From: Candidatus Curtissbacteria bacterium
GTDB taxonomy: Bacteria; Patescibacteriota; Microgenomatia; Curtissbacterales; GWA2-41-24
NCBI GenBank assembly: GCA_016183325.1
Contig: JACPEV010000011.1
Location: 36,782-100,781 of the forward strand
DNA: 64,000 nt
Reading direction: 5' to 3'
The notes under the pieces are model-generated. The model did not search any database, was not told the DNA's origin, and was given only the letters and a program-made list of their open reading frames with translations. Position numbers and translations under genes: made by a program. Positions 3,900 through 45,010 of the stretch are shown one piece after another (position 1 is the first letter of the stretch; each line of letters begins with the position of its first letter).

Positions 3900-4130
3900 A
3901 TTAAACGAATTATACCACTAAAATATGTAGTTTGTCGGACTAGTTTCAGCTTTATAAATTAATATTTCATTTCATGATCAAAAGTTGCTGGATTCCAGCG
4001 TTTTAGGATAGAATCTACCGGTGGGAGCAGCGATTCGACTGAGCTCATCGTCGAAGTCTTGCCCTGCGTACTGAGCGAAGCCGGAGTATCGAAGGGTTCA
4101 AGATTTCTCGCTCCTATTCGTCCGGGGAAG

Positions 4131-14963: not shown

Positions 14964-17963
14964 TTAAAAGCTCTTTGCCAAAAATTGACCGGTGTATGAA
15001 GATTTGACTCTTGCAACTTCACTAGGTGTACCTTGGGCTACAATTTGGCCTCCGCCGTCGCCACCTTCGGGGCCAAGATCAATTATCCAATCGGTGTTTC
15101 TGATAACGTCCATGTTGTGTTCAATAATAATCACCGTATTACCGGTGTCGACTAGGCGCCTGAGGATTGCAAGAAGTCTTTCGATGTCGGCAAAATGTAG
15201 ACCGGTCGTCGGTTCATCTAATATGTATAAAGTTTTCCCGGTTGCCCTTTTTGAGAGCTCGGTTGCCAACTTTACTCGTTGTGCTTCACCGCCTGAGAGT
15301 GTTGGGGCCGGTTGTCCGAGCCTGATATAGCCAAGGCCAACGTCGTAGATTGTTTCAAGTTTTTGTTTTATCTGCGGGATGTTTTCAAAAAAAGAAAGCG
15401 CTTCTTCGACGGTCATTTCCAGAACTTGCGAGATATTTTTGTTTTTATAATGAATTTCCAGGGCTTCTTGATTGTAACGTTTCCCGTTGCAAACTTCACA
15501 GTCGACGTAGACGTCCGGTAAAAATTGCATCTCGATTTTAACTTGACCATCGCCTTCACAGGCTTCGCAACGGCCGCCTTTGACGTTAAACGAGAAACGT
15601 CCCGGTTTGTAGGCTCGAACTCGCGCATCAGTCGTTTTGGAAAACAAATCCCTGATAAATGTAAAAACACCTGTGTAGGTTGCAGGGTTTGAACGAGGAG
15701 TTCTGCCGATTGGTGATTGGTCAATTAATATTACTTTATCAAGATTTTGGGTGCCATGAATTGTTTTGTGCTGGCCTGCTTTTTGACGTGAATGATAAAA
15801 CTCACTCGCGAGGGCATTATAGAGAACATCGTGAATTAATGTAGATTTTCCTGAGCCTGAAACACCAGTGATACAAATAAATTTTCCGAGTGGGAATTCA
15901 ACGTCGATGTTTTTAAGATTATGTTCTTTTGCTTCAAGGACGGTAAGGACGTTGTTACTGTTTGAGCTTGCCCTGTTACCATACGGCACCAGGCTTGTCG
16001 ACCCTTCGATTTTACTCAGGGTCGACACTGAGTTTATCGAATGTGTCGAGAACTTACCATTCCCCAACACCATACGGTGCAAGGTCGCTCGAAGAATATT
16101 ACTTATATCCACTTTTTTCTTTCCCGAAAGATATTTTCCAGTAAGGGAAGAAGGGTTTTTGATAATTTGCAGCGGGGTTCCTTGGGCTACAATTTTGCCT
16201 CCATGTTCGCCGGCTCCAGGGCCGAAATCCAGAATTTCGTCTGACGCTAGCATCATTTCTCGGTCGTGCTCGACAACTATGACGGTATTTCCGAGCTCTC
16301 TTAATTTCTTGAGAGTGGTGATAAGCCTGTTGTTATCCCGTTGGTGCAATCCAATTGACGGTTCATCAAGTACGTAAAGAACCCCAGATAAACCTGAGCC
16401 GATCTGGCTGGCGAGCCTAATTCGTTGAGATTCTCCCCCTGCGAGCGTGTTTGCCGTCCGATCGATGGTTAGATATTCAAGGCCGACATCCAAGAGAAAC
16501 TGAACCCTTGACATTAATTCTTTTAGGATTGGTGTCGATATTTTCTTATCCCGATCAGAGAGTAATTCACGACTTGTGGATAATTCCTTTAGCCACAAGA
16601 GCAGTTTAAAAATGGAGAACCTAGCAACTTCTGAGATGGATTTTTGTATGATTGTTACAGACAAAGCTTCTTTCTTGAGACGTGAACCTTTACACTCTTG
16701 GCACGTGTCTATCCTTATAAACTTTTCGATCTCGAACCTGACATAATTTGATTCCGTGCCCTTATACTTGCGCTCTAAATTATTTATCACGCCTTCGTAA
16801 TTGGTGTCCCAAGAAACAATACGGCCGTAACGATTCGGACCGGTGATGGTGTATGCTTGATCTCCTGAACCATAAAGCAAAATCTTTCTTGCTTCTTTAG
16901 ACAGATTTTCAATTGGTGCATCCATAGGAATTTTGTTTTCTTTAGCAACTGTTACCAAAACTCTCCAGGACCAGCTGTCGGATTCGACTAGGCGTGCCCA
17001 AGGAAGAATTCCGCCCTCTGAAATGGTCAGGTTGGGATTTAGTACAAGATCGGGGTCGACCTTTCGCAGTACGCCTAGTCCGTTACAAGTTGGACACGCT
17101 CCATGGGGGGAGTTGAAAGAAAACGTTCGTGGCTCAATTTCTGGGAGTGAAATATTGTCTTTGGGGCAGGCGAATTTTTCCGAAAAAAGATGATCTTTTA
17201 GCGCGTTTGGAAACTCGGGAATATCAAAAGTCTTATCCAATATCTCGGCAACGATGATTGTGCCTTCGCCAAGTTTTAAGGCCTGTTCTACTGATTGAAA
17301 CAGGCGGCTGTTTTCGGCGGGGATTGTCAGTCGGTCGATAACTGCATCAACTGAGTGTTTATTTGTCTTTATGAGCACAAAATCTTCGTCAAGTGATTTA
17401 ACCTTTCCGTCGATTCTGACATAACGGTATCCTTGCTTTTGCAAGTCTTTAAATAACTCTTTAAATTCACCTTTTCTGTCTTTAACAACTGGGGCAAGAA
17501 GAAGGATTCTGGTGAGTAGCTTGTGGCTTGTAGCACGTAGTTTTTGGATTTCGTCGACTATTTGTTGAGTTGACATGTGGGAAATTTCCCTGCCGCATAT
17601 AGGACAGTGTGGGTGACCAATTCTGGCAAACAAAAGTCGCAAATAATCGTAGATTTCCGTAACTGTTCCAACAGTGGATCTAGGATTGTGGGAAGTAGAC
17701 TTCTGGTCGATGGAAATAGCAGGAGAAAGGCCTTCAATCGAATCAACGTCGGGTTTATCCATAACTCCCAGGAATTGACGTGCGTATGAAGCTAGCGATT
17801 CGACGTAACGGCGTTGTCCTTCGGCATAGATGGTGTCAAACGCCAAGGAAGACTTGCCCGAACCAGAAATTCCCGTAAAAACAACTAGTTTGTTCTTGGG
17901 AATCTCGACATTGATATTTTTGAGATTATGTTCTCGGGCGCCTTTAATAATTATTTTGTCCAT
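14964..17963 (-). CDS. uvrA: Excinuclease ABC subunit A
   Basis: 999 aa. Two ABC modules ([12 protein letters not shown]; [11 protein letters not shown]) and zinc-finger cysteines. Confidence 0.95.
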
Positions 17964-25255: not shown

Positions 25256-25338
25256 AGGTTGACAACTGACAACTGACCCTTCGATTCACTACGTTCGCTC
25301 AGGGCAAGCAATTGACTTTTATATAATGTCGATTAACA

Positions 25339-38096: not shown

Positions 38097-39518
38097 ATGA
38101 ATCGCGTAATTCTCCATGTTGATTTAAATAGTTTTTTTGCGACCGCTGAGCAGCAGGCAAATCCGGTTTTGCGCGGTAAACCGGTAGGTATTACCAAAGC
38201 GGTTGGGCGTACTTGCATCATCGCGGCTTCAGTTGAGGCTAAACGTTGGGGAGTAACTACCGGTAGTAACGTTTATGATGCCAGAAAACTATGTCCACAA
38301 ATTATTTTGATACCTGCTGATTTTGATAAGTATGCGGATATTTCCATGCGTTTTATTGAAATTTGCAAAACATATTCGCCGCTTTGCGAAGTATTTTCTT
38401 TGGACGAATGTTTTATTGATGTAACGGAAACTGAAAAATTCTGGCATAACGTTTTTAATATTGCTTTTGAGATTAAAGATAGGCTGAGATCTGAGGTTGG
38501 TGAACGGATGACTGTATCTTGCGGAGTTTCCCACAACAGGCTTCTTGCCAAACTTGCTTCTTCGCAAATTAAACCGGACGGGCTTTTTTGGATAACTCGC
38601 GACAATGCAATTTCAACTTTAGATAAGTCGGATTTAACGGATGTGTGCGGTCTGGGATTTGCTCTAAATCGTCGTTTGCGAGATTTAGGCATTGATAGTT
38701 TTCCTAAGCTAAGATCAAAGTCACTGGTATTTTTGCATAAACATTTTGGGCCGTTCTGGTCAAAGCATCTTTATAATATCGCACGCGGAATTGATGAATC
38801 ACCGGTTGTGCCGACGGACGAAATACCTGATGCCAAAAGCGTTGGCAGAACTTACACAACACATAGGGACTTAACAAATAAAGATGAAGTTTTGCAGTTG
38901 ATGCGAAATCTGTGTGAAGAAACGACTGCTAAAGCTCGCATGATGGGTCTTGCGGGCAGATATGTAGGATTGACGTTAAGAGGATCGAGTCTTGAAACTA
39001 AATCCGAATACCAAAAATCGTTTTTCGAAGAAAACGGGACTCAATCCGAAACAAATTCTAATGTTCAAAATTCTAAATCCAAAACAGTTTCTAATTTAGG
39101 TAATTTGGATTTTGATATTGTTTCGAATTTTGAGATTCGTGCTTCGAATTTATACCGAGGAGAGCTTAGTTTTTATGGGCATCGGACATTAAAAAACTAT
39201 ATAGATGATGGGAAACGACTTTTTGATATATGCTTAGCAATTTGTAAAGAATGGTCTGTTTTTGCCGCAAAACCAAATGTGCGTTTTTGCGGAGTGACTT
39301 TGGGAATGCTTACTGAAGTGCGCTTTTTAACAACTCCCCTATTTTCTGCTGACAGACGGCGTCAAGACTTAGTAAAAACTATTGATCAGATCAACCGGAG
39401 ATTTGGCGATTATACTGTTTACCCTGGACAACTTCTGGGAATGCCGATTATTCGACCTGAGGTTAACGGCTACTTTGGCGACAAAGCCTACAGGCTTAAC
39501 TTTGTACCTCACGGGTAA
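38097..39518 (+). CDS. dinB: Y-family DNA polymerase (DinB/Pol IV-like) with extended C-terminus
   Basis: MNRVILHVDLNSFFATAEQQANP...SLDECFIDVTE catalytic motifs. I chose the ATG at 38097 over the upstream listed start, which lies inside the iteron array. Confidence 0.85.
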   Translation: MNRVILHVDLNSFFATAEQQANPVLRGKPVGITKAVGRTCIIAASVEAKRWGVTTGSNVYDARKLCPQIILIPADFDKYADISMRFIEICKTYSPLCEVFSLDECFIDVTETEKFWHNVFNIAFEIKDRLRSEVGERMTVSCGVSHNRLLAKLASSQIKPDGLFWITRDNAISTLDKSDLTDVCGLGFALNRRLRDLGIDSFPKLRSKSLVFLHKHFGPFWSKHLYNIARGIDESPVVPTDEIPDAKSVGRTYTTHRDLTNKDEVLQLMRNLCEETTAKARMMGLAGRYVGLTLRGSSLETKSEYQKSFFEENGTQSETNSNVQNSKSKTVSNLGNLDFDIVSNFEIRASNLYRGELSFYGHRTLKNYIDDGKRLFDICLAICKEWSVFAAKPNVRFCGVTLGMLTEVRFLTTPLFSADRRRQDLVKTIDQINRRFGDYTVYPGQLLGMPIIRPEVNGYFGDKAYRLNFVPHG

Positions 39519-39559
39519 TACTTCAAAGTAACTGTTCACCGTTACTGTCACAACGCATA

Positions 39560-39800
39560 TTGTTCGAGGCTGAAAGCCGAGAACTAAACTTCTCGCTCAC
39601 GCTCGAAGAGTAATAACGTATCAGCGATTGTGAGCTCTTACGTATCAAATGAGTTATTGACATTGTAAAAATTCTTCGACTGCGCTCAGAGTTTTTTATC
39701 TAATGAAGATCCTTCGATAAACTCAGGATGTTTACCTAATCTTTCGACTATGCTCAAGACGTTCAGTCGGTAAAAATTCTTCGACTGCGCTCAGAATCTT
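39560..39800. repeat. Repeat-filled convergent intergenic spacer, including a 26-bp direct repeat GTAAAAATTCTTCGACTGCGCTCAGA (39665-39690; 39771-39796) and degenerate relatives
   Basis: Motif family CTTCGA(C)...GCTCAGAG / TCGAAGGGCT, also present at 4058-4115, 40820-40860, 42541-42660 and 42945-42975. Confidence 0.55.
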
Positions 39801-39803
39801 CAC

Positions 39804-40760
39804 CTAATCAGTGAAGACCTGCGTGAACATTTTGCCGTAGACTCCCCCGTCGATAGCGCCGATGCCGATTTTTTTAAAGGCAGGGTCAAGAATGTTACGC
39901 TTGTGACCCTCGCTGTTCATTAACCCAATATGAGCGCGCGTGACATCCGGTGCCAAAGCAAGATTCTCACCAGCCATGGTAAAACCAATATTTGCCCCCT
40001 CTAGTCTATCTCCCACGTCTTTGCCTTCGGGAGAGTAGTGCGAAAAATACCCTTTTTCAAACATATCTTTGGAATGATTTCTGCCGACTTGAGCGCGAGC
40101 TTCGTCCCAAACTAGCGGCTGAACTCCGTACTTAATTCTTTCTTGATTAACAAGTTCCAGCATTTTCTGCTCGCCGGCGTAGTCTATGGTCAGTTGCCTT
40201 TGAGTAAACTCAAGAGGAATCGAGCCTTTTTCTTCGGGTTTAACTGTTAAAAAAGTCAGGCTTTGTTTGGCGATGGGCCCAAAAATGCTACTTATGGGTT
40301 TTTCGAGGACAGAAGCACTGCTGACTAATGCGGAGCCAAGTTGAGAGTCGAATATGTCCTTTTTAATGTCGGGCCTTATGGGAAGCGAGGCCACAAAAAG
40401 AAGAATAAAAGCTAAAAATAAAAGCGCGTTGATTGTGGCAGGAATAAATCCGAAATATTTATTGATGGTATTTTTGTTAACTAATTGTAAAAGTCGGCCG
40501 AAAAAACCATTAAAGATCGTAAAAAAGAGACTCTCTATGATGATCCAAACCAATAAAAATCCAATAGGATTTGCAATGATCTTTGGTAAGTTAAAATATT
40601 TCGTGAGTAGTTGTGCTGAAAATGGGTAAAGATTGAGTGAAGCGATAAGAGAAACCAAAAAGCCGATTATTTCGATGACTTGAGCAAAAAAACCACGTCT
40701 TAAGCCTTCTAGGGCAAATGTGATAACAACAAGGATAATTAAAAGATCAACCCAGTTCAT
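39804..40760 (-). CDS. CvpA-family membrane domain fused to a CAP/SCP (PR-1/YkwD-like) domain
   Basis: N-terminus MNWVDLLIILVVITFALEGLRRGFF (CvpA-like). C-terminus ...GRNHSKDMFEKGYFSHYSPEGKDVGDRL...GENLA...HIGLMNSEGHKRNIL (CAP domain). Confidence 0.65.
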   Translation of the reverse strand: MNWVDLLIILVVITFALEGLRRGFFAQVIEIIGFLVSLIASLNLYPFSAQLLTKYFNLPKIIANPIGFLLVWIIIESLFFTIFNGFFGRLLQLVNKNTINKYFGFIPATINALLFLAFILLFVASLPIRPDIKKDIFDSQLGSALVSSASVLEKPISSIFGPIAKQSLTFLTVKPEEKGSIPLEFTQRQLTIDYAGEQKMLELVNQERIKYGVQPLVWDEARAQVGRNHSKDMFEKGYFSHYSPEGKDVGDRLEGANIGFTMAGENLALAPDVTRAHIGLMNSEGHKRNILDPAFKKIGIGAIDGGVYGKMFTQVFTD

Positions 40761-40801
40761 ACATTAAATTATACCCAAAAAAATGAGAGAATTCTGAAGG
40801 G

Positions 40802-40818
40802 TGGCCCTACGGGGAGTC
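40802..40818 (-). repeat. 17-bp copy of the tRNA-Glu 3' end (GACTCCCCGTAGGGCCA), an att-like direct repeat
   Basis: Exact match to 41180-41196 inside the tRNA-Glu gene. The 361 bp between the two copies contain only a GIY-YIG gene. Confidence 0.8.
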
Positions 40819-40885
40819 TACACTTCGCTCGAAATAGTTTTTTCGAGCTTCGAGTAGTTTATATTCCCTTGAACCATATTCTTCC

Positions 40886-41143
40886 CTAAAGTTTCTTTAG
40901 AGATTTAAGAAAATGTTTATACATAAAAGCAACTCCTGATCCTGATTTTAAGTATTTTTCAAAACCCAAAGCGTCAGCTTTCTCAACGAACGAGGAATAG
41001 TGCACAAGTTTGTAATTCAGGTTAGATTTTGTCGACTGAACTTTACCTGATAGATGTCTTTGGATACGTTTTCTTAAATCTGGAGTGTAACCTATGTAAT
41101 ATCGATTTGTAATTTCGTTAAATAAAATGTAAACGTAATACAT
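40886..41143 (-). CDS. Small GIY-YIG nuclease, YhbQ/UPF0213-like (85 aa)
   Basis: YYVYILFNEITNRYYIGYTPDLRKRIQRHLSGK (GIY...YIG, R, H..G) and the downstream E/K-rich helix. Confidence 0.8.
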   Translation of the reverse strand: MYYVYILFNEITNRYYIGYTPDLRKRIQRHLSGKVQSTKSNLNYKLVHYSSFVEKADALGFEKYLKSGSGVAFMYKHFLKSLKKL

Positions 41144-41179
41144 TAGGGGTTTACTATCCGAAACTTTAGTGAAGGATAG

Positions 41180-41251
41180 TGGCCCTACGGGGAGTCGAAC
41201 CCCGCTTTGGACCTTGAAAGAGTCCCGTCCTAACCGATAGACGATAGGGCC
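41180..41251 (-). tRNA. tRNA-Glu (anticodon TTC)
   Basis: Reverse complement folds as GGCCCTA acceptor, anticodon stem GGACT/GGTCC, loop CTTTCAA, T-loop TTCGACT. Confidence 0.85.
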
Positions 41252-41333
41252 TCAATCGAGATAATAGTGAATAGAAAATGGAAAATAGTCTAGTCACCAA
41301 GACCAGGAAAAAAGCCTAGCAATTTTACCACAA

Positions 41334-42011
41334 TTACCCTTGCTTCTTAAACTTCTCGACTACTGTTTCAAGTAAGGACCGTGCCACAGTTTGTCCACCT
41401 AACCCAAATGCTAAGCCTCCCGCAATCGCGAGCATAGCCACAAGTCCTGCAAATAAAATCCGCAATAATTCCTGGGCAACTCCCAGTTGGTGTAGCACTA
41501 AAAAAGCTACGAAAACTGTCAGGGACCAACGAGCCACAAGAGCCACAACGTGGGCGGTATCCCTTCCCAGTGAGTGACTTGCGCTATAAGTAACTCTATA
41601 AGCGAGTTTTGAGAGTACTATGCCAATTACTGCCAAAATTACTGCAACAACAACATTGGGGATATAAAGTAGAACCCGCGCCAGAACTGTATTGACAGAA
41701 TCGAGACGCCACGCCTGGAAAGTAGGAATCAGGAAAATAATTATGATTGTCCAGCGTGTAATTTCTGCCAAAACATCAGTCCATTCAATTTCTCTGCCTT
41801 CTACCTTGACTATTCCGTACTTCTCCAGATACCTTTCTATCTTTAGAGTCTTGAGAATGCCAACTATGACTCTATAGGCAATGGCTCCAGCTGCTAAGCC
41901 TATTGAAAGAACAATCAGTCCCCCCAAAAGGGAAGGAATAAAATTAATAAAAGCAGCCAAAGAGTTAATCACCACAGAAGAAACTGCTGTCGTTAAATCT
42001 TCAACGCTCAT
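41334..42011 (-). CDS. Multi-pass membrane protein with conserved TM-helix repeats (MscS-N-terminal-like), visibly higher GC than its neighbours
   Basis: 225 aa with ≥5 TM segments and repeated L...AG...A motifs. Confidence 0.4.
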   Translation of the reverse strand: MSVEDLTTAVSSVVINSLAAFINFIPSLLGGLIVLSIGLAAGAIAYRVIVGILKTLKIERYLEKYGIVKVEGREIEWTDVLAEITRWTIIIIFLIPTFQAWRLDSVNTVLARVLLYIPNVVVAVILAVIGIVLSKLAYRVTYSASHSLGRDTAHVVALVARWSLTVFVAFLVLHQLGVAQELLRILFAGLVAMLAIAGGLAFGLGGQTVARSLLETVVEKFKKQG

Positions 42012-42065
42012 TTGATATCACCTCCTTTGCCCATAATCTGTATCTAATTTTAGTTTAGGGATAAT

Positions 42066-42092
42066 TGCCCCAAGAGTCAAAATCGTATATAA
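42066..42092 (+). promoter_or_regulatory. Candidate promoter TTGCCC-N17-TATAAT driving the pseudo-tRNA / GIY-YIG / tRNA-Lys cluster
   Basis: -10 at 42087-42092, ~15 nt upstream of the first tRNA-like element. Confidence 0.4.
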
Positions 42093-42106
42093 TTTAGATT
42101 CAAAAC

Positions 42107-42168
42107 GGGGGTATAGCTCAATTTAGTTAGATCCGGCGGTGCCGGACTTTGACGAGTGAACTCTAGTT
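42107..42168 (+). other. tRNA-like pseudo-element 1: a tRNA 5' half (GGGGGTATAGCTCAATTTAGTTAGA) with the D-stem/anticodon-stem replaced by hairpin TCCGGCGGTGCCGGA, followed by an anticodon-loop-like CTTTGAC
   Basis: Cannot fold as a cloverleaf. Shares the hairpin insertion with element 2. Confidence 0.45.
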
Positions 42169-42185
42169 TTTAGTTTTTGACAAAT

Positions 42186-42240
42186 GGCCCGCTAGCTCAA
42201 TGGTAGATCCGGCGAAGCCGGACTTTTAAGCGATTGGTTC
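42186..42240 (+). other. tRNA-like pseudo-element 2: a copy of tRNA-Lys nt 1-23 plus 34-52, with the central 8 nt replaced by hairpin TCCGGCGAAGCCGGA; it abuts the GIY-YIG start codon
   Basis: GGCCCGCTAGCTCAATGGTAGA-[hairpin]-CTTTTAAGCGATTGGTT matches the intact tRNA-Lys at 42489 except for the replaced core. Confidence 0.6.
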
Positions 42241-42498
42241 ATGTATACTGTCTACGTAATTAAAAGTGAATCGACGGGCAAAATATATATTGGTCAAACA
42301 GCAGTTAAAGTAACAAGATTAAAAAGGCACAATAAGGAGCTGCCTTATAATCCAAAAGGATTTACAGCAAAGAATGTAGGGCCGTGGAGAATTGTTTACG
42401 AAGAAACTTTTGAGACAAGAACAGAAGCATTAAAAAAAGAAAAATATTTAAAATCACACGTGGGACGCGATTACATCAGAAAAACATTGGCCCGCTAG
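42241..42498 (+). CDS. Small GIY-YIG nuclease, YhbQ/UPF0213-like (85 aa); its stop codon lies inside the 5' end of tRNA-Lys
   Basis: MYTVYVIKSESTGKIYIGQTAVKVTRLKRHN... The stop TAG comes from GGCCCGC-TAG-CTC of the tRNA. Confidence 0.8.
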   Translation: MYTVYVIKSESTGKIYIGQTAVKVTRLKRHNKELPYNPKGFTAKNVGPWRIVYEETFETRTEALKKEKYLKSHVGRDYIRKTLAR

Positions 42499-42560
42499 CT
42501 CAATGGTAGAGCAATCGCCTTTTAAGCGATTGGTTACAGGTTCGATCCCTGTGCGGGTCA
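42489..42560 (+). tRNA. tRNA-Lys (anticodon TTT)
   Basis: Acceptor GGCCCGC/GCGGGTC, anticodon stem ATCGC/GCGAT, loop CTTTTAA, T-loop TTCGATC. Confidence 0.85.
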
Positions 42561-42572
42561 CTCTTCGACTCG

Positions 42573-42594
42573 CCCTGAGAGTAATCGAAGGGCT
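42573..42594 (+). repeat. 22-bp hairpin-containing direct repeat CCCTGAGAGTAATCGAAGGGCT, upstream flank of the third GIY-YIG gene
   Basis: Counterpart CCCTGAGTTTATCGAAGGGCT at 42947-42967, immediately after the gene. Confidence 0.6.
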
Positions 42595-42661
42595 CGCTCA
42601 GAGTAAACTCGAGTTGAAGAACCCTGAGCGAATTATAATGTTGAGAGAATCGAAACATTAA

Positions 42662-42934
42662 ATGAGTCGAAGGGCTAATGTATCTTGGTACGTATATATA
42701 GCTAAAGCAAAAACTGGCAGATATTACACAGGTATAACCACAAGTCCAGATAAAAGAATTATTAAACATAACTCCGGGAAGGGTTTAAAGTTTGCCATAG
42801 AGCAAGGCCCATTTGAATTGGTCTATGTCTCAGAAGCATTTCCAAATAAGTCAGAAGCAAGAAAACGAGAAATTCAAATTAAAGGCTGGTCGAGAGAAAA
42901 GAAATTAAAACTAATAAGCGGCGAGTGGAAATAA
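42662..42934 (+). CDS. Small GIY-YIG nuclease, YhbQ/UPF0213-like (90 aa)
   Basis: WYVYIAKAKTGRYYTGITTSPDKRIIKHNSGKGLKFA...LVYVSEAFPNKSEARKREIQIKGWSREKK closely follows the YhbQ pattern. Confidence 0.8.
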   Translation: MSRRANVSWYVYIAKAKTGRYYTGITTSPDKRIIKHNSGKGLKFAIEQGPFELVYVSEAFPNKSEARKREIQIKGWSREKKLKLISGEWK

Positions 42935-43064
42935 AATTGAAGTTTACCCTGAGTTTATCGAAGGGCTGAAAGCGTTCCAGTACCCTTTGCCCCAACTATA
43001 TCTTTAACTTCGCTTTTTAACAAATCTATGTGTAAATGGAATTTTAGCCACAAAAGGCATATAA

Positions 43065-43658
43065 TTGCCGACTATGACTCCCGATTTGCGTCCTAGTGAT
43101 AACAACGAGGACGATAAACCAACTACGAGAGAAGAAATTGCTTTTGTGATTTTAACCTGGTTACAAGAAAGCCCTTCAGAGGTAGTTGAGGCAGCTGATT
43201 TGATGATGTGGGTTAGCGAAAATCATGCTCTGGTAAAGCTCCGTGATAGATTAAGAGATGCTTACTTAAAAGTGGATGGAGTAGAAGTAAGTGATTGGTT
43301 TACTCGTGGAGTTTCTGCAGCTTTTATGTATTTCCATGAAGTAGGTCAGGATATTGATAAAACGGACATACCTGTAATCACTCAAGGCACAATAGACTCA
43401 TTTAGATCAGATGCGGGAGAGAGTCGCAGGCAAAGGATGATTGCCTCAGAGTTTCTACTGGGAGATGAGTTAGCTGCAGAAAGATTACGGAGAGTAAATA
43501 AGATTTACGACCAAACGGATAAAAATCTACTGTTAATTTTAATGGAAACAAGGCTTAGGCCGGAAAATAAAGCAGTTTCGGAAAAAGCCCTAAGGGCTTT
43601 TCTGGAAGGTGGAATAATTGTGAATAATCTATTTGATAAGCAAGTACAATCTGCTTAG
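43065..43658 (+). CDS. Hypothetical protein (197 aa), GC-richer than its surroundings
   Basis: No domain recognised; predicted helical. Confidence 0.4.
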   Translation: MPTMTPDLRPSDNNEDDKPTTREEIAFVILTWLQESPSEVVEAADLMMWVSENHALVKLRDRLRDAYLKVDGVEVSDWFTRGVSAAFMYFHEVGQDIDKTDIPVITQGTIDSFRSDAGESRRQRMIASEFLLGDELAAERLRRVNKIYDQTDKNLLLILMETRLRPENKAVSEKALRAFLEGGIIVNNLFDKQVQSA

Positions 43659-43849
43659 TTCAACGTCCGAGTAGGAGATAGTTTAGGTTTGAATTTTGAG
43701 ATAAAGCCAAATTTGTGTAAAGCGATTTTAGTCCACCGAACGCCTGGTTCCCTTTCGACAAGCTCAGTGCTTTAGCATTCCAATCCCTTCTTGTCCTCAG
43801 ATTTTCGAAGGGTGCCCCACTATCCATAAAAAGAAGATAATTGACGATT

Positions 43850-44284
43850 TTATTTAGAAGTAAATATTATCTTTTCTTCCGGTCTTCTTAACTCAATACC
43901 TTGGAATTGATCGAAAAATCCCTTTTGCCCCAGAATAGTTTGATTATGCGCCGAACTAAAATCCGCAAACGTTTCTATTGTCAAACTTTCAAAAAATATT
44001 TTTATTCCAAAATGACGATAGGCTTCAATTGGAGGCGCATCACCAATGCCTTTTATTCTTATAAGTGTCCCTTTTGTCAGATTTATACCCAACACTCTAC
44101 AAATATCTGCAGGAAATAAGTTGTAGTCTGATCCTGAATCAACTAACGCAGTCAATCTAATCATTTGTCCATGCTTATAATTCACTTGAACGTCTACTAG
44201 TGGCCTAAGAACTGTCGAGGGCTTACCTTTGGTATCTAAACCAGGCGACTCTTGATACCAGACGGTTATTTTTTTAGAAGTCAT
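43850..44284 (-). CDS. Retropepsin-like (clan AA) aspartic protease
   Basis: LTALVDSGSDYNLFP (D-S/T-G-A/S), with a second Gly-rich flap-like segment IKGIGD. Confidence 0.55.
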   Translation of the reverse strand: MTSKKITVWYQESPGLDTKGKPSTVLRPLVDVQVNYKHGQMIRLTALVDSGSDYNLFPADICRVLGINLTKGTLIRIKGIGDAPPIEAYRHFGIKIFFESLTIETFADFSSAHNQTILGQKGFFDQFQGIELRRPEEKIIFTSK

Positions 44285-44287
44285 AAA

Positions 44288-44473
44288 CTACGGAGAATAC
44301 GCAGTATCCGCCGGGGGTACTTTATAGAAAGTTGCCTTCTTCGCTTTTTGTTTGAGTTCATTCCACAATTTATTAAAGCTGCTTCCATGGGCAATTACTC
44401 TACTTTTGGAACGGTCAATCGCAACCCACTCATTGGCATATTTTGCCATATTCGCTATCCTTTTTCTCTTCAT
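44288..44473 (-). CDS. Small protein (61 aa) co-transcribed upstream of the retropepsin-like protease
   Basis: 3-nt gap to the downstream gene. ...YANEWVAIDRSKSRVIAHGSSFNKLWNEL. Confidence 0.4.
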   Translation of the reverse strand: MKRKRIANMAKYANEWVAIDRSKSRVIAHGSSFNKLWNELKQKAKKATFYKVPPADTAYSP

Positions 44474-44737
44474 GCAAAGATAATTATACTACTGATCGGA
44501 TTTTGTTCAAGTTGTCATACATATTTGTTGAACCGGATTGACACGTGTCTCTTTTTTGCAATCAAACGATTAATAAAGTAGACGTGCCAAGGTGAGTCAA
44601 ATGGAAAGTGGATTTTTAACCTTTTTTATCCTGCTACGTGTCTTCCTTCTTTTATGGGTGCAATCCCAAGAGGAGCGGGTACGGCGGACACCGCTTCAAT
44701 CCAAAAATCTTAAATATGTATATTCTAATATTAGCAA

Positions 44738-44766
44738 TTGATAAGCTTGGCAGTTTATGATATAAT
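44738..44766 (+). promoter_or_regulatory. Canonical σ70-like promoter TTGATA-N17-TATAAT for the GHKL operon
   Basis: -35 at 44738-44743, -10 at 44761-44766, ~28 nt before the first ATG at 44795. Confidence 0.55.
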
Positions 44767-44794
44767 AACTTCGATTTTTAGGGAAAATAAAAAA

Positions 44795-45010
44795 ATGTCA
44801 GAAACGCGCAGCGAAAAATTTAAAAGACTTGCGACTTATCGTACCAACATAGTGCTGGAAAAACTCCGTATTCTTGGAAACCTATCTAACAAAACAAACT
44901 ATGATTACACAGATGAAGAAGTACATAAGATATTTTCTGCTATAGATGATGGCCTTAAAAGAGTAAAGGCTAAGTTTAGTTTAACGCGTAAACAACACTT
45001 TACACTTTAA
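44795..45010 (+). CDS. Small protein (71 aa), first gene of the GHKL operon
   Basis: MSETRSEKFKRLATYRTNIVLEKLRILGNL.... I chose the ATG at 44795 over the track start at 44738, which overlaps the promoter. Confidence 0.45.
   Translation: MSETRSEKFKRLATYRTNIVLEKLRILGNLSNKTNYDYTDEEVHKIFSAIDDGLKRVKAKFSLTRKQHFTL

Follow-up and report, generated by a model that had tools for sequence, protein, structure and literature searches.

We analyzed a 64,000-nt stretch of DNA (hereafter, the window) from an uncultured groundwater Candidatus Curtissbacteria genome, in which a small gene for a GIY-YIG nuclease, GIY3, lies directly behind a tRNA-Lys gene and among short palindromic units. The tRNA-Lys(UUU) gene, a 'type B' allele on the plus strand (42489-42560/61), was identified by ARAGORN and by Rfam (RF00005, 70.8 bits). 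GIY3, an open reading frame (ORF) of 90 amino acids at 42662-42934(+), starts 101 nt after it. A preliminary description of the locus held that GIY3 is a nuclease cassette of its own and that two hairpin-containing 22-bp direct repeats form its boundaries. Much of this proved to be correct: the repeats lie at the positions reported, CCCTGAGAGTAATCGAAGGGCT on the left (42573-42594, plus strand) and CCCTGAGTTTATCGAAGGGCT on the right (42947-42967), they bracket the ORF, and each contains an inverted pair, namely a hairpin CCCT/AGGG enclosing GAG-loop-TCGA. The cassette is also an independent one, immediately 3' of tRNA-Lys, and its family differs from those of GIY1 and GIY2, the other GIY-YIG genes of the window. 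The repeats are not its boundaries, however. The block that is conserved among eight orthologous cassettes runs instead from the discriminator base of the tRNA to ~12 nt beyond the stop codon of GIY3.

The GIY3 protein matched PF01541 with 65.8 bits (cut-off, 22.6; E=4.3e-18), and no second domain was found. It also matched PDB 1zg2 across residues 8-86 (E=2.1e-18) and PDB 1ywl (E=3e-10). GIY3 belongs to the minimal GIY-YIG nucleases of the UPF0213/YhbQ (Slx1-like) group, with the size of a single-domain member (~85-100 amino acids) and with BH0048 and EF2693 as its closest proteins. Its sequence is 100% identical to a 'GIY-YIG nuclease family protein' of Candidatus Curtissbacteria at NCBI. 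The catalytic residues Y12, Y22, G24, R32 and H36 and the metal-binding E70 are invariant among 19 aligned sequences. The ratio of nonsynonymous to synonymous substitution rates (dN/dS) is ~0.06-0.12, which indicates that the protein is under strong purifying selection. GIY3 showed no homing-endonuclease match in PHROGs, NCBIfam or PADLOC, where GIY1 and GIY2 give weak ones, and its membership in a defence system was rejected because PADLOC returned no match. Residues 27-72 also showed a weak match (E=0.022) to chain A of PDB 8iaz, a 384-aa protein deposited as 'Transposase'.

Between the tRNA and the ORF lies a non-coding leader made of palindromic units. A unit consists of a variable outer stem of 4-5 bp around an invariable core, 5'-(T)GAG...loop...TCGA(A)-3'. 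In most cases GTTTAC, which reads GTAAAC on the opposite strand, goes with it. Judging from the sequence, tandem sheared G.A pairs (UGAG/CGAA) can arise in the core on the written strand. The tRNA-proximal unit (42560-42608, minus strand) is inverted and abuts the tRNA, so that the cassette starts at the tRNA-Lys discriminator base. It has an outer stem ACTCT (42560-64)/AGAGT (42600-04), a core TCGAC...CTC and a tail GTAAAC (42603-08); its GA-rich hairpin strand is the minus strand, and the regular-expression match covers 42561-42603(-). This unit is nearly invariant in nine aligned cassettes. The ORF-proximal unit (42622-42674, plus strand) is direct, CCCT-GAG...TCGA-AGGG, and carries the start codon of GIY3 (ATG, 42662) in its loop. 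The two units are separated by TCGAGTTGAAGAA (42609-42621, plus strand), a conserved spacer or half-unit with near-invariant alignment columns.

The preliminary description had also placed additional repeat fragments in the spacer at 42623-42660. One of them, CCCTGAGCG, is indeed present there, although it begins at 42622, whereas the third copy of TCGAAGGGCT lies at 42667-42676, within the ORF, and encodes codons 2-5 ('SRRA') of GIY3. The CCCTGAG of CCCTGAGCG and the TCGAAGGG in the ORF are the two halves of the ORF-proximal unit. In other words, the in-ORF TCGAAGGGCT is the 3' half of a hairpin begun at 42622, and this is why the start codon is found in a hairpin loop. The ORF-proximal unit occurs in a minimal form, CCCTGAGCGAATAAAATGAGTCGAAGGGC, in the related loci L001, L003 and L007; the further unit nested in it at 42639-42657 (extended stem, 42636-42659) was found in the window and L067 only.

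The left repeat is a nested unit as well. Small but complete, CCCT-GAG-AGTAA-TCGA-AGGG, it sits within the loop of the tRNA-proximal unit, and it is lineage-specific because orthologues carry an unrelated hairpin, ACAATATAATTGT, at the same position. In L002 the left-repeat unit, CCTGAGAGTAATCGAAGG, is an extra insertion at another place in the leader. The right repeat, headed by GTTTAC, stands alone as a complete unit (42942-42967, plus strand; GTTTA-CCCT-GAG-TTTA-TCGA-AGGG-CT). It is placed immediately outside the tail that is conserved at the 3' end of the cassette, AATTGAAG(TTTA) at 42935-42946(+), and this tail is similar to an inverted copy of the left end, CTTCGACT. The unit variant of the right repeat, GAAGTTTAYCCTGAGTTTATCGAAGG, also occurs in L091, L092, L121 and L125 and at window positions 39710-28. 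In L109 and L111 the right repeat is absent between matching flanks, with AAAATTGA(G/A)G directly joined to GCTGA(G/A)AG..GTTCCAGTACC, and a downstream unit was found in just two of 69 orthologous loci. The contiguous flanks of L109 and L111 indicate that the repeat is a 22-nt solo insertion, TTTACCCTGAGTTTATCGAAGG, in the window. From this comparison it looks like a later arrival between the cassette tail and the remnant of an older tRNA-Lys gene.

We scanned for relatives of GIY3 with one genome per species and obtained 69 loci that encode them, from Levy-, Curtiss-, Morani-, Peregrini-/Peri- and Saccharibacteria, Omnitrophota, Aminicenantia and others. The loci share an upstream order: the tRNA 3' end, an inverted unit, one or more direct units and the ATG. 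Most of them have exactly one inverted and one direct unit. The inverted unit starts at the discriminator base and has the form S1-TTCGAC-TCG[variable hairpin]CTCG-CTCA-S1'-(G)TAAAC. A co-oriented tRNA gene lies within 400 nt upstream of the ORF in 38 of the 69 loci, mostly at 55-250 nt, and 19 tRNA species are represented. In L003, which has no tRNA, the leader is still preceded by the last 8-10 tRNA nucleotides. We counted 102 units in the 43 kb that extend from -250 to +150 nt of the 69 orthologous ORFs (2.37/kb) and 25 in the other 497 kb (0.05/kb), a 47-fold difference. In an alignment of nine cassettes that lie behind tRNA-Lys or its remnant, the conserved block begins exactly after the tRNA and ends at TAAAATTGAAGAA, which is kept after the stop codon in L001-L004, L006, L040 and L065. 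The loop contents differ among cassettes through the gain or loss of whole units.

Two further observations concern these loci. Several of them (L002-L004, L040, L051, L059, L067 and L068) have typical sequence of the Candidate Phyla Radiation (CPR) kind in records labelled 'uncultured Gammaproteobacteria', and L050/L052 is a near-identical contig pair whose two records name Nanoarchaeia and Patescibacteria, respectively; the odd labels are probably binning or labelling errors. Right after the GIY3 stop codon, L001-L004, L040 and L065 contain a conserved minus-strand element that resembles the 3' half of a tRNA (..GAGTTCGAATCCTGCTCGGGT), with ~30 further conserved bases, and the element also occurs in L071, ~85 nt after tRNA-Lys, without GIY3. 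This tRNA-like half downstream of the Levybacteria copies was recognised by neither ARAGORN nor Rfam; it could represent a tRNA gene that is unusual or contains an intron.

The leader is conserved as a nucleotide sequence. Its mean identity is 88.6% (ungapped columns), compared with 72.6% at codon position 3 and 79% in the tRNA. N-terminal extensions of the homologues read the same DNA in three frames, as PELVEG, SLSKG and SRRA, which also places the conservation at the nucleotide level. The outer stem occurs as ACTCT/AGAGT, ACACT/AGTGT, ACCAT/ATGGT, ACCCT/AGGGT and ATGGT/ACCAT. For units located via their core anchors alone, so that complementarity was not required, 75.8% of cells pair, compared with 17-38% when the partner column is slid. 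Double-change cells numbered 40, compared with 15.5 in shuffles, and none of 500 shuffles reached the observed value. These results show that the leader is under nucleotide-level constraint and that its architecture is kept across phyla.

The pattern CCCTGAG-N0-12-TCGAAGGG matched three times in the window where 0.00 matches were expected (100 shuffles), and a fourth exact-pattern copy lies at 16002-16021(-), within uvrA. A relaxed search gave 11 units where 0.6 were expected, and the maximum in 200 dinucleotide shuffles was 4. Five units surround GIY3 and the remaining copies are dispersed. The tRNAs of the window that have no adjacent GIY-YIG gene are followed by no unit. The preliminary description had raised the possibility that the repeats belong to a genome-wide REP family unrelated to the gene. 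This turned out to be half right: the units are a dispersed, REP-like family, but the family is associated with the gene, given its enrichment beside orthologues across phyla.

To examine the occupancy of the locus, we queried metagenomes with the neighbouring MscS-like gene (41334-42011) and obtained 80 loci, in which the block cvpA - tRNA-Lys - MscS - tRNA-Glu is conserved. Among the 45 tRNA-Lys loci whose 3' flank extends for at least 400 nt, none carried a GIY3 relative. Thus, the check for presence or absence in relatives that the preliminary description had proposed revealed an insertion polymorphism. In a few of these loci, tRNA-Lys is preceded by a GIY2-type gene or tRNA-Glu is followed by one of the GIY1 type, and L125 has a decayed GIY1-type gene after tRNA-Lys. 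A naive empty site downstream of tRNA-Lys was not obtained from these loci, since the flanks are non-syntenic past the tRNA and L109 and L111 contain footprints rather than clean sites.

Comparison of GIY3 with the Levybacteria copies gave a protein identity of 83-89%, a dN of 0.05-0.10 and a dS of 0.64-1.08. MscS and its Levybacteria orthologue are 44% identical; at synonymous sites, MscS is saturated already in comparisons with the closest Curtissbacteria. Given that the dS of GIY3 is low while that of host genes is saturated, the cassette was exchanged long after the hosts had diverged, that is, by horizontal transfer. Single metagenome-assembled genomes (MAGs) contain two or three copies of the cassette. 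In L032 (~2240-2810) and L039 (~130-770), which come from different MAGs, a ~570-bp element comprising the leader, the ORF and ~32 nt is 97% identical between unrelated flanks on both sides, and the two copies differ by hairpin-containing upstream indels of 40 and 33 nt. An exact repeat of the tRNA 3' terminus is present behind the ORF in five of 38 loci and in none of 38 controls; these repeats are 10-20 nt long and in every case extend to the terminus. In L102, L075, L104 and L121, we also found ORF-less composites of ~100 nt 3' of tRNA-Lys, each made up of an inverted and a direct unit, with a ~18-nt repeat of the tRNA-Lys 3' end, AGTCCCTGTGCCCCCACC, on either side. These look like non-autonomous derivatives of the cassette. 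Taken together, the nuclease gene and its hairpin-doublet leader are one conserved, horizontally moving unit at tRNA 3' ends.

What kind of element is this? We consider it fairly probable that GIY3 and its non-coding leader constitute a small (~0.4-0.6 kb), horizontally mobile and selfish cassette that lodges immediately 3' of tRNA genes and resembles a REPIN/RAYT system, and we infer the following mechanism. An enzyme of the structure-specific Slx1 type would nick or cut the hairpin or cruciform DNA formed by the units; because the protein has a catalytic domain and no DNA-binding domain, its substrate is likely to be a DNA structure rather than a long sequence. The T-arm of the tRNA gene, in which a 5-bp stem is followed by a TTCGA loop, resembles a unit and may be a second substrate. 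The break would then be repaired from a cassette-bearing copy, and the cassette thereby installed. The conserved tRNA end could serve as one homology arm; the other would be either a tRNA 3' remnant that had been displaced or one of the dispersed units. Such repair would account for the order of intact tRNA, cassette and remnant and for the variable length of the duplications. We also considered a fixed cleavage point in the T-loop or a precise target-site duplication, which the variable 10-20 nt repeats at only five of 38 loci do not support. The same nuclease activity may also seed solo and nested units, as in the REPIN/RAYT system, which is the nearest functional parallel, albeit with another enzyme and another repeat.

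Several points weigh against this proposal. The association between the protein and the units could be a simple co-transfer of the leader, and GIY3 contains no sequence-specific DNA-binding module. With so few downstream units, no consistent pair of element ends is defined, and the duplications of the tRNA end are kept in a small minority of loci and vary in length. Among the loci of relatives examined, some also carry solo units without a nearby GIY-YIG gene. The footprints in L109 and L111 hint at an old cassette at the same locus, so that the 45 empty sites mix losses with sites that were never occupied. No relative was found in the viral contigs of IMG/VR that would point to a phage carrier. 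In addition, an earlier survey grouped UPF0213 proteins with Slx1 and treated them as vertically inherited housekeeping proteins (PMC1564403), the usual view of the family.

It has to be asked whether the units need the nuclease at all. They could be an autonomous family of the REP type or of the type of miniature inverted-repeat transposable elements (MITEs), moved by another enzyme, such as a RAYT-type transposase elsewhere, and piling up at the neutral flanks of GIY-YIG and tRNA genes. Solo units distant from GIY-YIG genes, in the window and in relatives, are what such a family would leave, as are the nesting of units inside one another, the in-frame pair in uvrA and the right repeat with its resemblance to an independent 22-nt insertion. 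However, neutral accumulation would not yield a fixed inverted-plus-direct layout at constant positions, nor a leader that is more conserved than synonymous sites in many phyla, and the enrichment beside the ORFs was measured against the other intergenic DNA of the same loci. The units also lack the GTAG/CGTC tags of RAYT-dependent REPs (PMC3733652), and the window tRNAs without a GIY-YIG gene lack units too. We therefore regard an autonomous family as an unlikely explanation.

The units might, on the other hand, function in RNA. GIY3 would then be a housekeeping gene transcribed together with tRNAs, its product a cellular enzyme of RNA or of DNA repair, and the hairpins of its structured 5' untranslated region would serve processing of the tRNA 3' trailer or, with the start codon in a hairpin loop, translation control; the dispersed copies would be REP-like elements of mRNAs. 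The leader RNA has a predicted fold of -48 kcal/mol (z = -5.5) in which the AUG adjoins a helix, no separate promoter was found for GIY3 while a promoter-like site lies upstream of the entire tRNA block, and the purifying selection on the protein would be expected of a housekeeping gene. A fusion with the tRNA methyltransferase TrmH in the UPF0213 family also led earlier authors to propose a role in RNA (PMC1564403). A gene of this kind, however, should not be missing from all 45 syntenic sites, have a dS far under the level of host genes, occur in several copies per MAG with 19 tRNA partners and in near-identical copies in unrelated contexts, or leave tRNA-end duplications and ORF-less derivatives. 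Since the leader units are opposed in orientation, only one of them could form the G.A hairpin in a transcript. A long-range RNA helix between the tRNA-proximal half-unit and the ORF start was considered and rejected, as its outer pairs are not kept in Peribacteria-type leaders, which leaves the local hairpins as the conserved structure. The solo units of the window alone suggested that all are in the sense orientation, but pooling the loci removed this bias (23 sense and 16 antisense relative to genes; not significant). Rfam recognised only tRNAs at E<=5 in 39000-45000 and only tRNAs in seven related loci, with no model for the leader or the units. A role in RNA thus seems quite improbable, and it is less likely than a cassette that acts at the DNA level. 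Finally, chance similarity or ordinary terminators flanking a small gene, which the short repeats (21-22 nt) and stems of merely 4-5 bp might suggest, have a negligible probability and are already refuted by the pattern counts and the gene association, by the absence of a T-run after the hairpins, by a terminator scan that was negative at these positions and by the conservation of the motif across phyla.

The mobile cassette that we favor fits known kinds of elements, selfish GIY-YIG genes beside tRNAs such as SegB of T4 and REP-like repeats with their enzyme, yet it lacks defining features of each. Like the REP/REPIN-RAYT systems (PMC3116915, PMC3337134, PMC3733652), it involves dispersed palindromes of ~20-45 nt, often as inverted doublets, a doublet beside a nuclease gene and non-autonomous derivatives. 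The enzyme, however, is a GIY-YIG protein of UPF0213 and not an HUH Y1 transposase, the units have a TGAG...TCGA core and a GTAAAC tail in place of the GTAG/CGTC tag, and the doublet is confined to one side of the gene. RAYTs usually have a single copy and vertical inheritance, whereas the cassette gene is multi-copy, horizontal and tied to tRNA 3' ends. Free-standing GIY-YIG genes of the SegB type similarly lie among or beside tRNA genes, show presence/absence polymorphism and spread with flanking sequence (PMC2330249). Such proteins exceed 200 amino acids and have a sequence-specific DNA-binding domain, whereas GIY3 is a catalytic domain of 85-90 amino acids from the Slx1/UPF0213 lineage, has no match to a homing-endonuclease family and carries a palindromic leader. 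The presence/absence pattern and horizontal spread of a homing endonuclease are found here (0 of 45 loci; dS, 0.6-1.1; L032/L039, 97%).

Other comparisons are more distant. In 1994, Paquin, Laforest and Lang are said to have described a mobile GIY-YIG ORF in the mitochondrial atp6 gene of Allomyces that brings a replacement for the 3' end of its host gene. There, the element comes after the intact host gene and before a displaced second copy of that gene's 3' end, much as tRNA, cassette and 10-20-nt remnant follow each other here; the hosts in our case are bacterial tRNA genes, the duplications are short, the enzyme is of another family and there is a hairpin leader. The Rickettsia palindromic elements and in-frame MITEs resemble the units in that palindromic sequences lie in-frame in an essential gene (here the uvrA linker), but the present units, at 19-30 nt, are far smaller and go together with one particular nuclease gene. 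An integron gene cassette (attC) would have a consistent hairpin after the ORF, whereas just two of the 69 loci have a downstream unit; no search of the window for an integrase was made. Nor does the element resemble a tRNA-targeting island mobilized by an integrase, with att repeats: repeats occur in 5 of 38 loci, the element is at most 0.6 kb and it has a single ORF of 90 amino acids. A full-text literature search found no description of the cassette, the leader or the motif.

UPF0213/YhbQ is a broad family whose function is unassigned, and it has so far been treated as a vertically inherited repair enzyme. The hairpin doublet, the precise placement at the tRNA flank, the insertion polymorphism and the transfer across phyla give it a testable role in a selfish element and a specific candidate substrate. 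If this holds, it would explain 'PELVEG/SLSKG/FDKLR'-type junk peptides among metagenome gene calls, as well as part of the rearrangement around tRNA genes in CPR genomes, including allele replacement, pseudo-tRNA fragments and local inversions. More speculatively, UPF0213/YhbQ proteins in general may be the nucleases of unrecognised miniature mobile elements, a GIY-YIG counterpart of REP/RAYT, that recognise T-arm-like DNA hairpins (a stem and a TTCGA/TCGA core with tandem G.A pairs), home to tRNA 3' ends across phyla and generate REPIN-like solo and nested units. We regard this generalization as possible but tentative, with the balance of probability against it. If it is true, REPIN-like units would reshape not just intergenic DNA but also coding sequences, uvrA among them. 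The pair of unit and nuclease could also serve as a compact structure-specific DNA tool.

The surroundings of GIY3 contain parts of more than one tRNA-Lys gene. The intact type-B gene is 97% identical to the tRNA-Lys of L071, L072 and L074. Displaced downstream, at 42971-42996(+), are positions 50-74 of an older tRNA-Lys of 'type A', a 3' remnant that has decayed; it matches the tRNA-Lys of L095 at 21 of 25 positions with one indel and ends at the tRNA terminus (score 25; 0 of 500 shuffles). Upstream of GIY2 lie two pseudo-5' parts of tRNA-Lys on the plus strand, one of type A (42107-42165) and one of type B (42186-42239). Positions 42107-42123 are an exact copy (17/17) of the type-A 5' end, and the direct repeats D3, D6 and D12 also support the pseudo-5' parts. 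In both parts, a hairpin TCCGGCG(GT/AA)GCCGGA (TCCGGCGAAGCCGGA or TCCGGCGGTGCCGGA) takes the place of the anticodon stem's 5' strand and is directly followed by the anticodon-loop CTTT(T). From its sequence, the locus appears to derive from an old type-A tRNA-Lys that was interrupted by a nest of ~850 bp, which contains the type-B pseudo-5' part, GIY2, the intact type-B tRNA-Lys, the GIY3 cassette and the solo unit.

The hairpin and CTTT(T) of the pseudo-5' parts resemble an intrinsic terminator, and L095 (reverse complement, ~1290-1360) has the same design with a different hairpin. Comparison of L070-L134 with window 39800-43000 showed two tRNA-Lys(UUU) alleles at one locus, GGGGGTA...GCCCCCAC and GGCCCGC...GCGGGTCA. 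Relative to cvpA, both orientations were seen for the tRNA-Lys gene itself as well as for the entire tRNA-Lys-MscS-tRNA-Glu block, which makes the region a local inversion hot spot. The GIY2 ORF (42241-42498) overlaps tRNA-Lys, and its stop codon is the conserved U8-A9-G10 (TAG) of the tRNA; this overlap is conserved in L094, L095 and L131, which have another tRNA-Lys allele. The GIY1 cassette (40801-41251, minus strand) consists of tRNA-Glu (41179-41251), a leader with a hairpin and GTAAAC (41144-41178), the ORF (40886-41143), a hairpin and a repeat. It lies directly 3' of tRNA-Glu and is bracketed by an exact (100%) 18-nt direct repeat of the tRNA-Glu 3' end, at 40801-40818 and 41179-41196 (D11). 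In Levybacteria L007, the GIY-YIG gene at the position of GIY1 is only 39% identical.

The dispersed units of the window lie in various contexts. Two units in inverted arrangement (16002-16041, minus strand) are in-frame in uvrA (14964-17963, minus strand), one of them within a perfect 30-nt palindrome, GTCGACCCT...AGGGTCGAC. Compared with PDB 2r6f, the UvrA protein has ~40 extra residues (621-672) at this linker insertion. A cluster of four solo units (39675-39796, minus strand) lies downstream of the cvpA/CAP-domain gene, and a solo unit CCCTGAGCGAACGTAGTGAATCGAAGGG (25277-25304, minus strand) lies in a divergent intergenic region. The relaxed search also detected a degenerate solo unit, CACTGAGCTTGTCGAAAGG (43751-43769, minus strand), and a copy at about 4031-4100.

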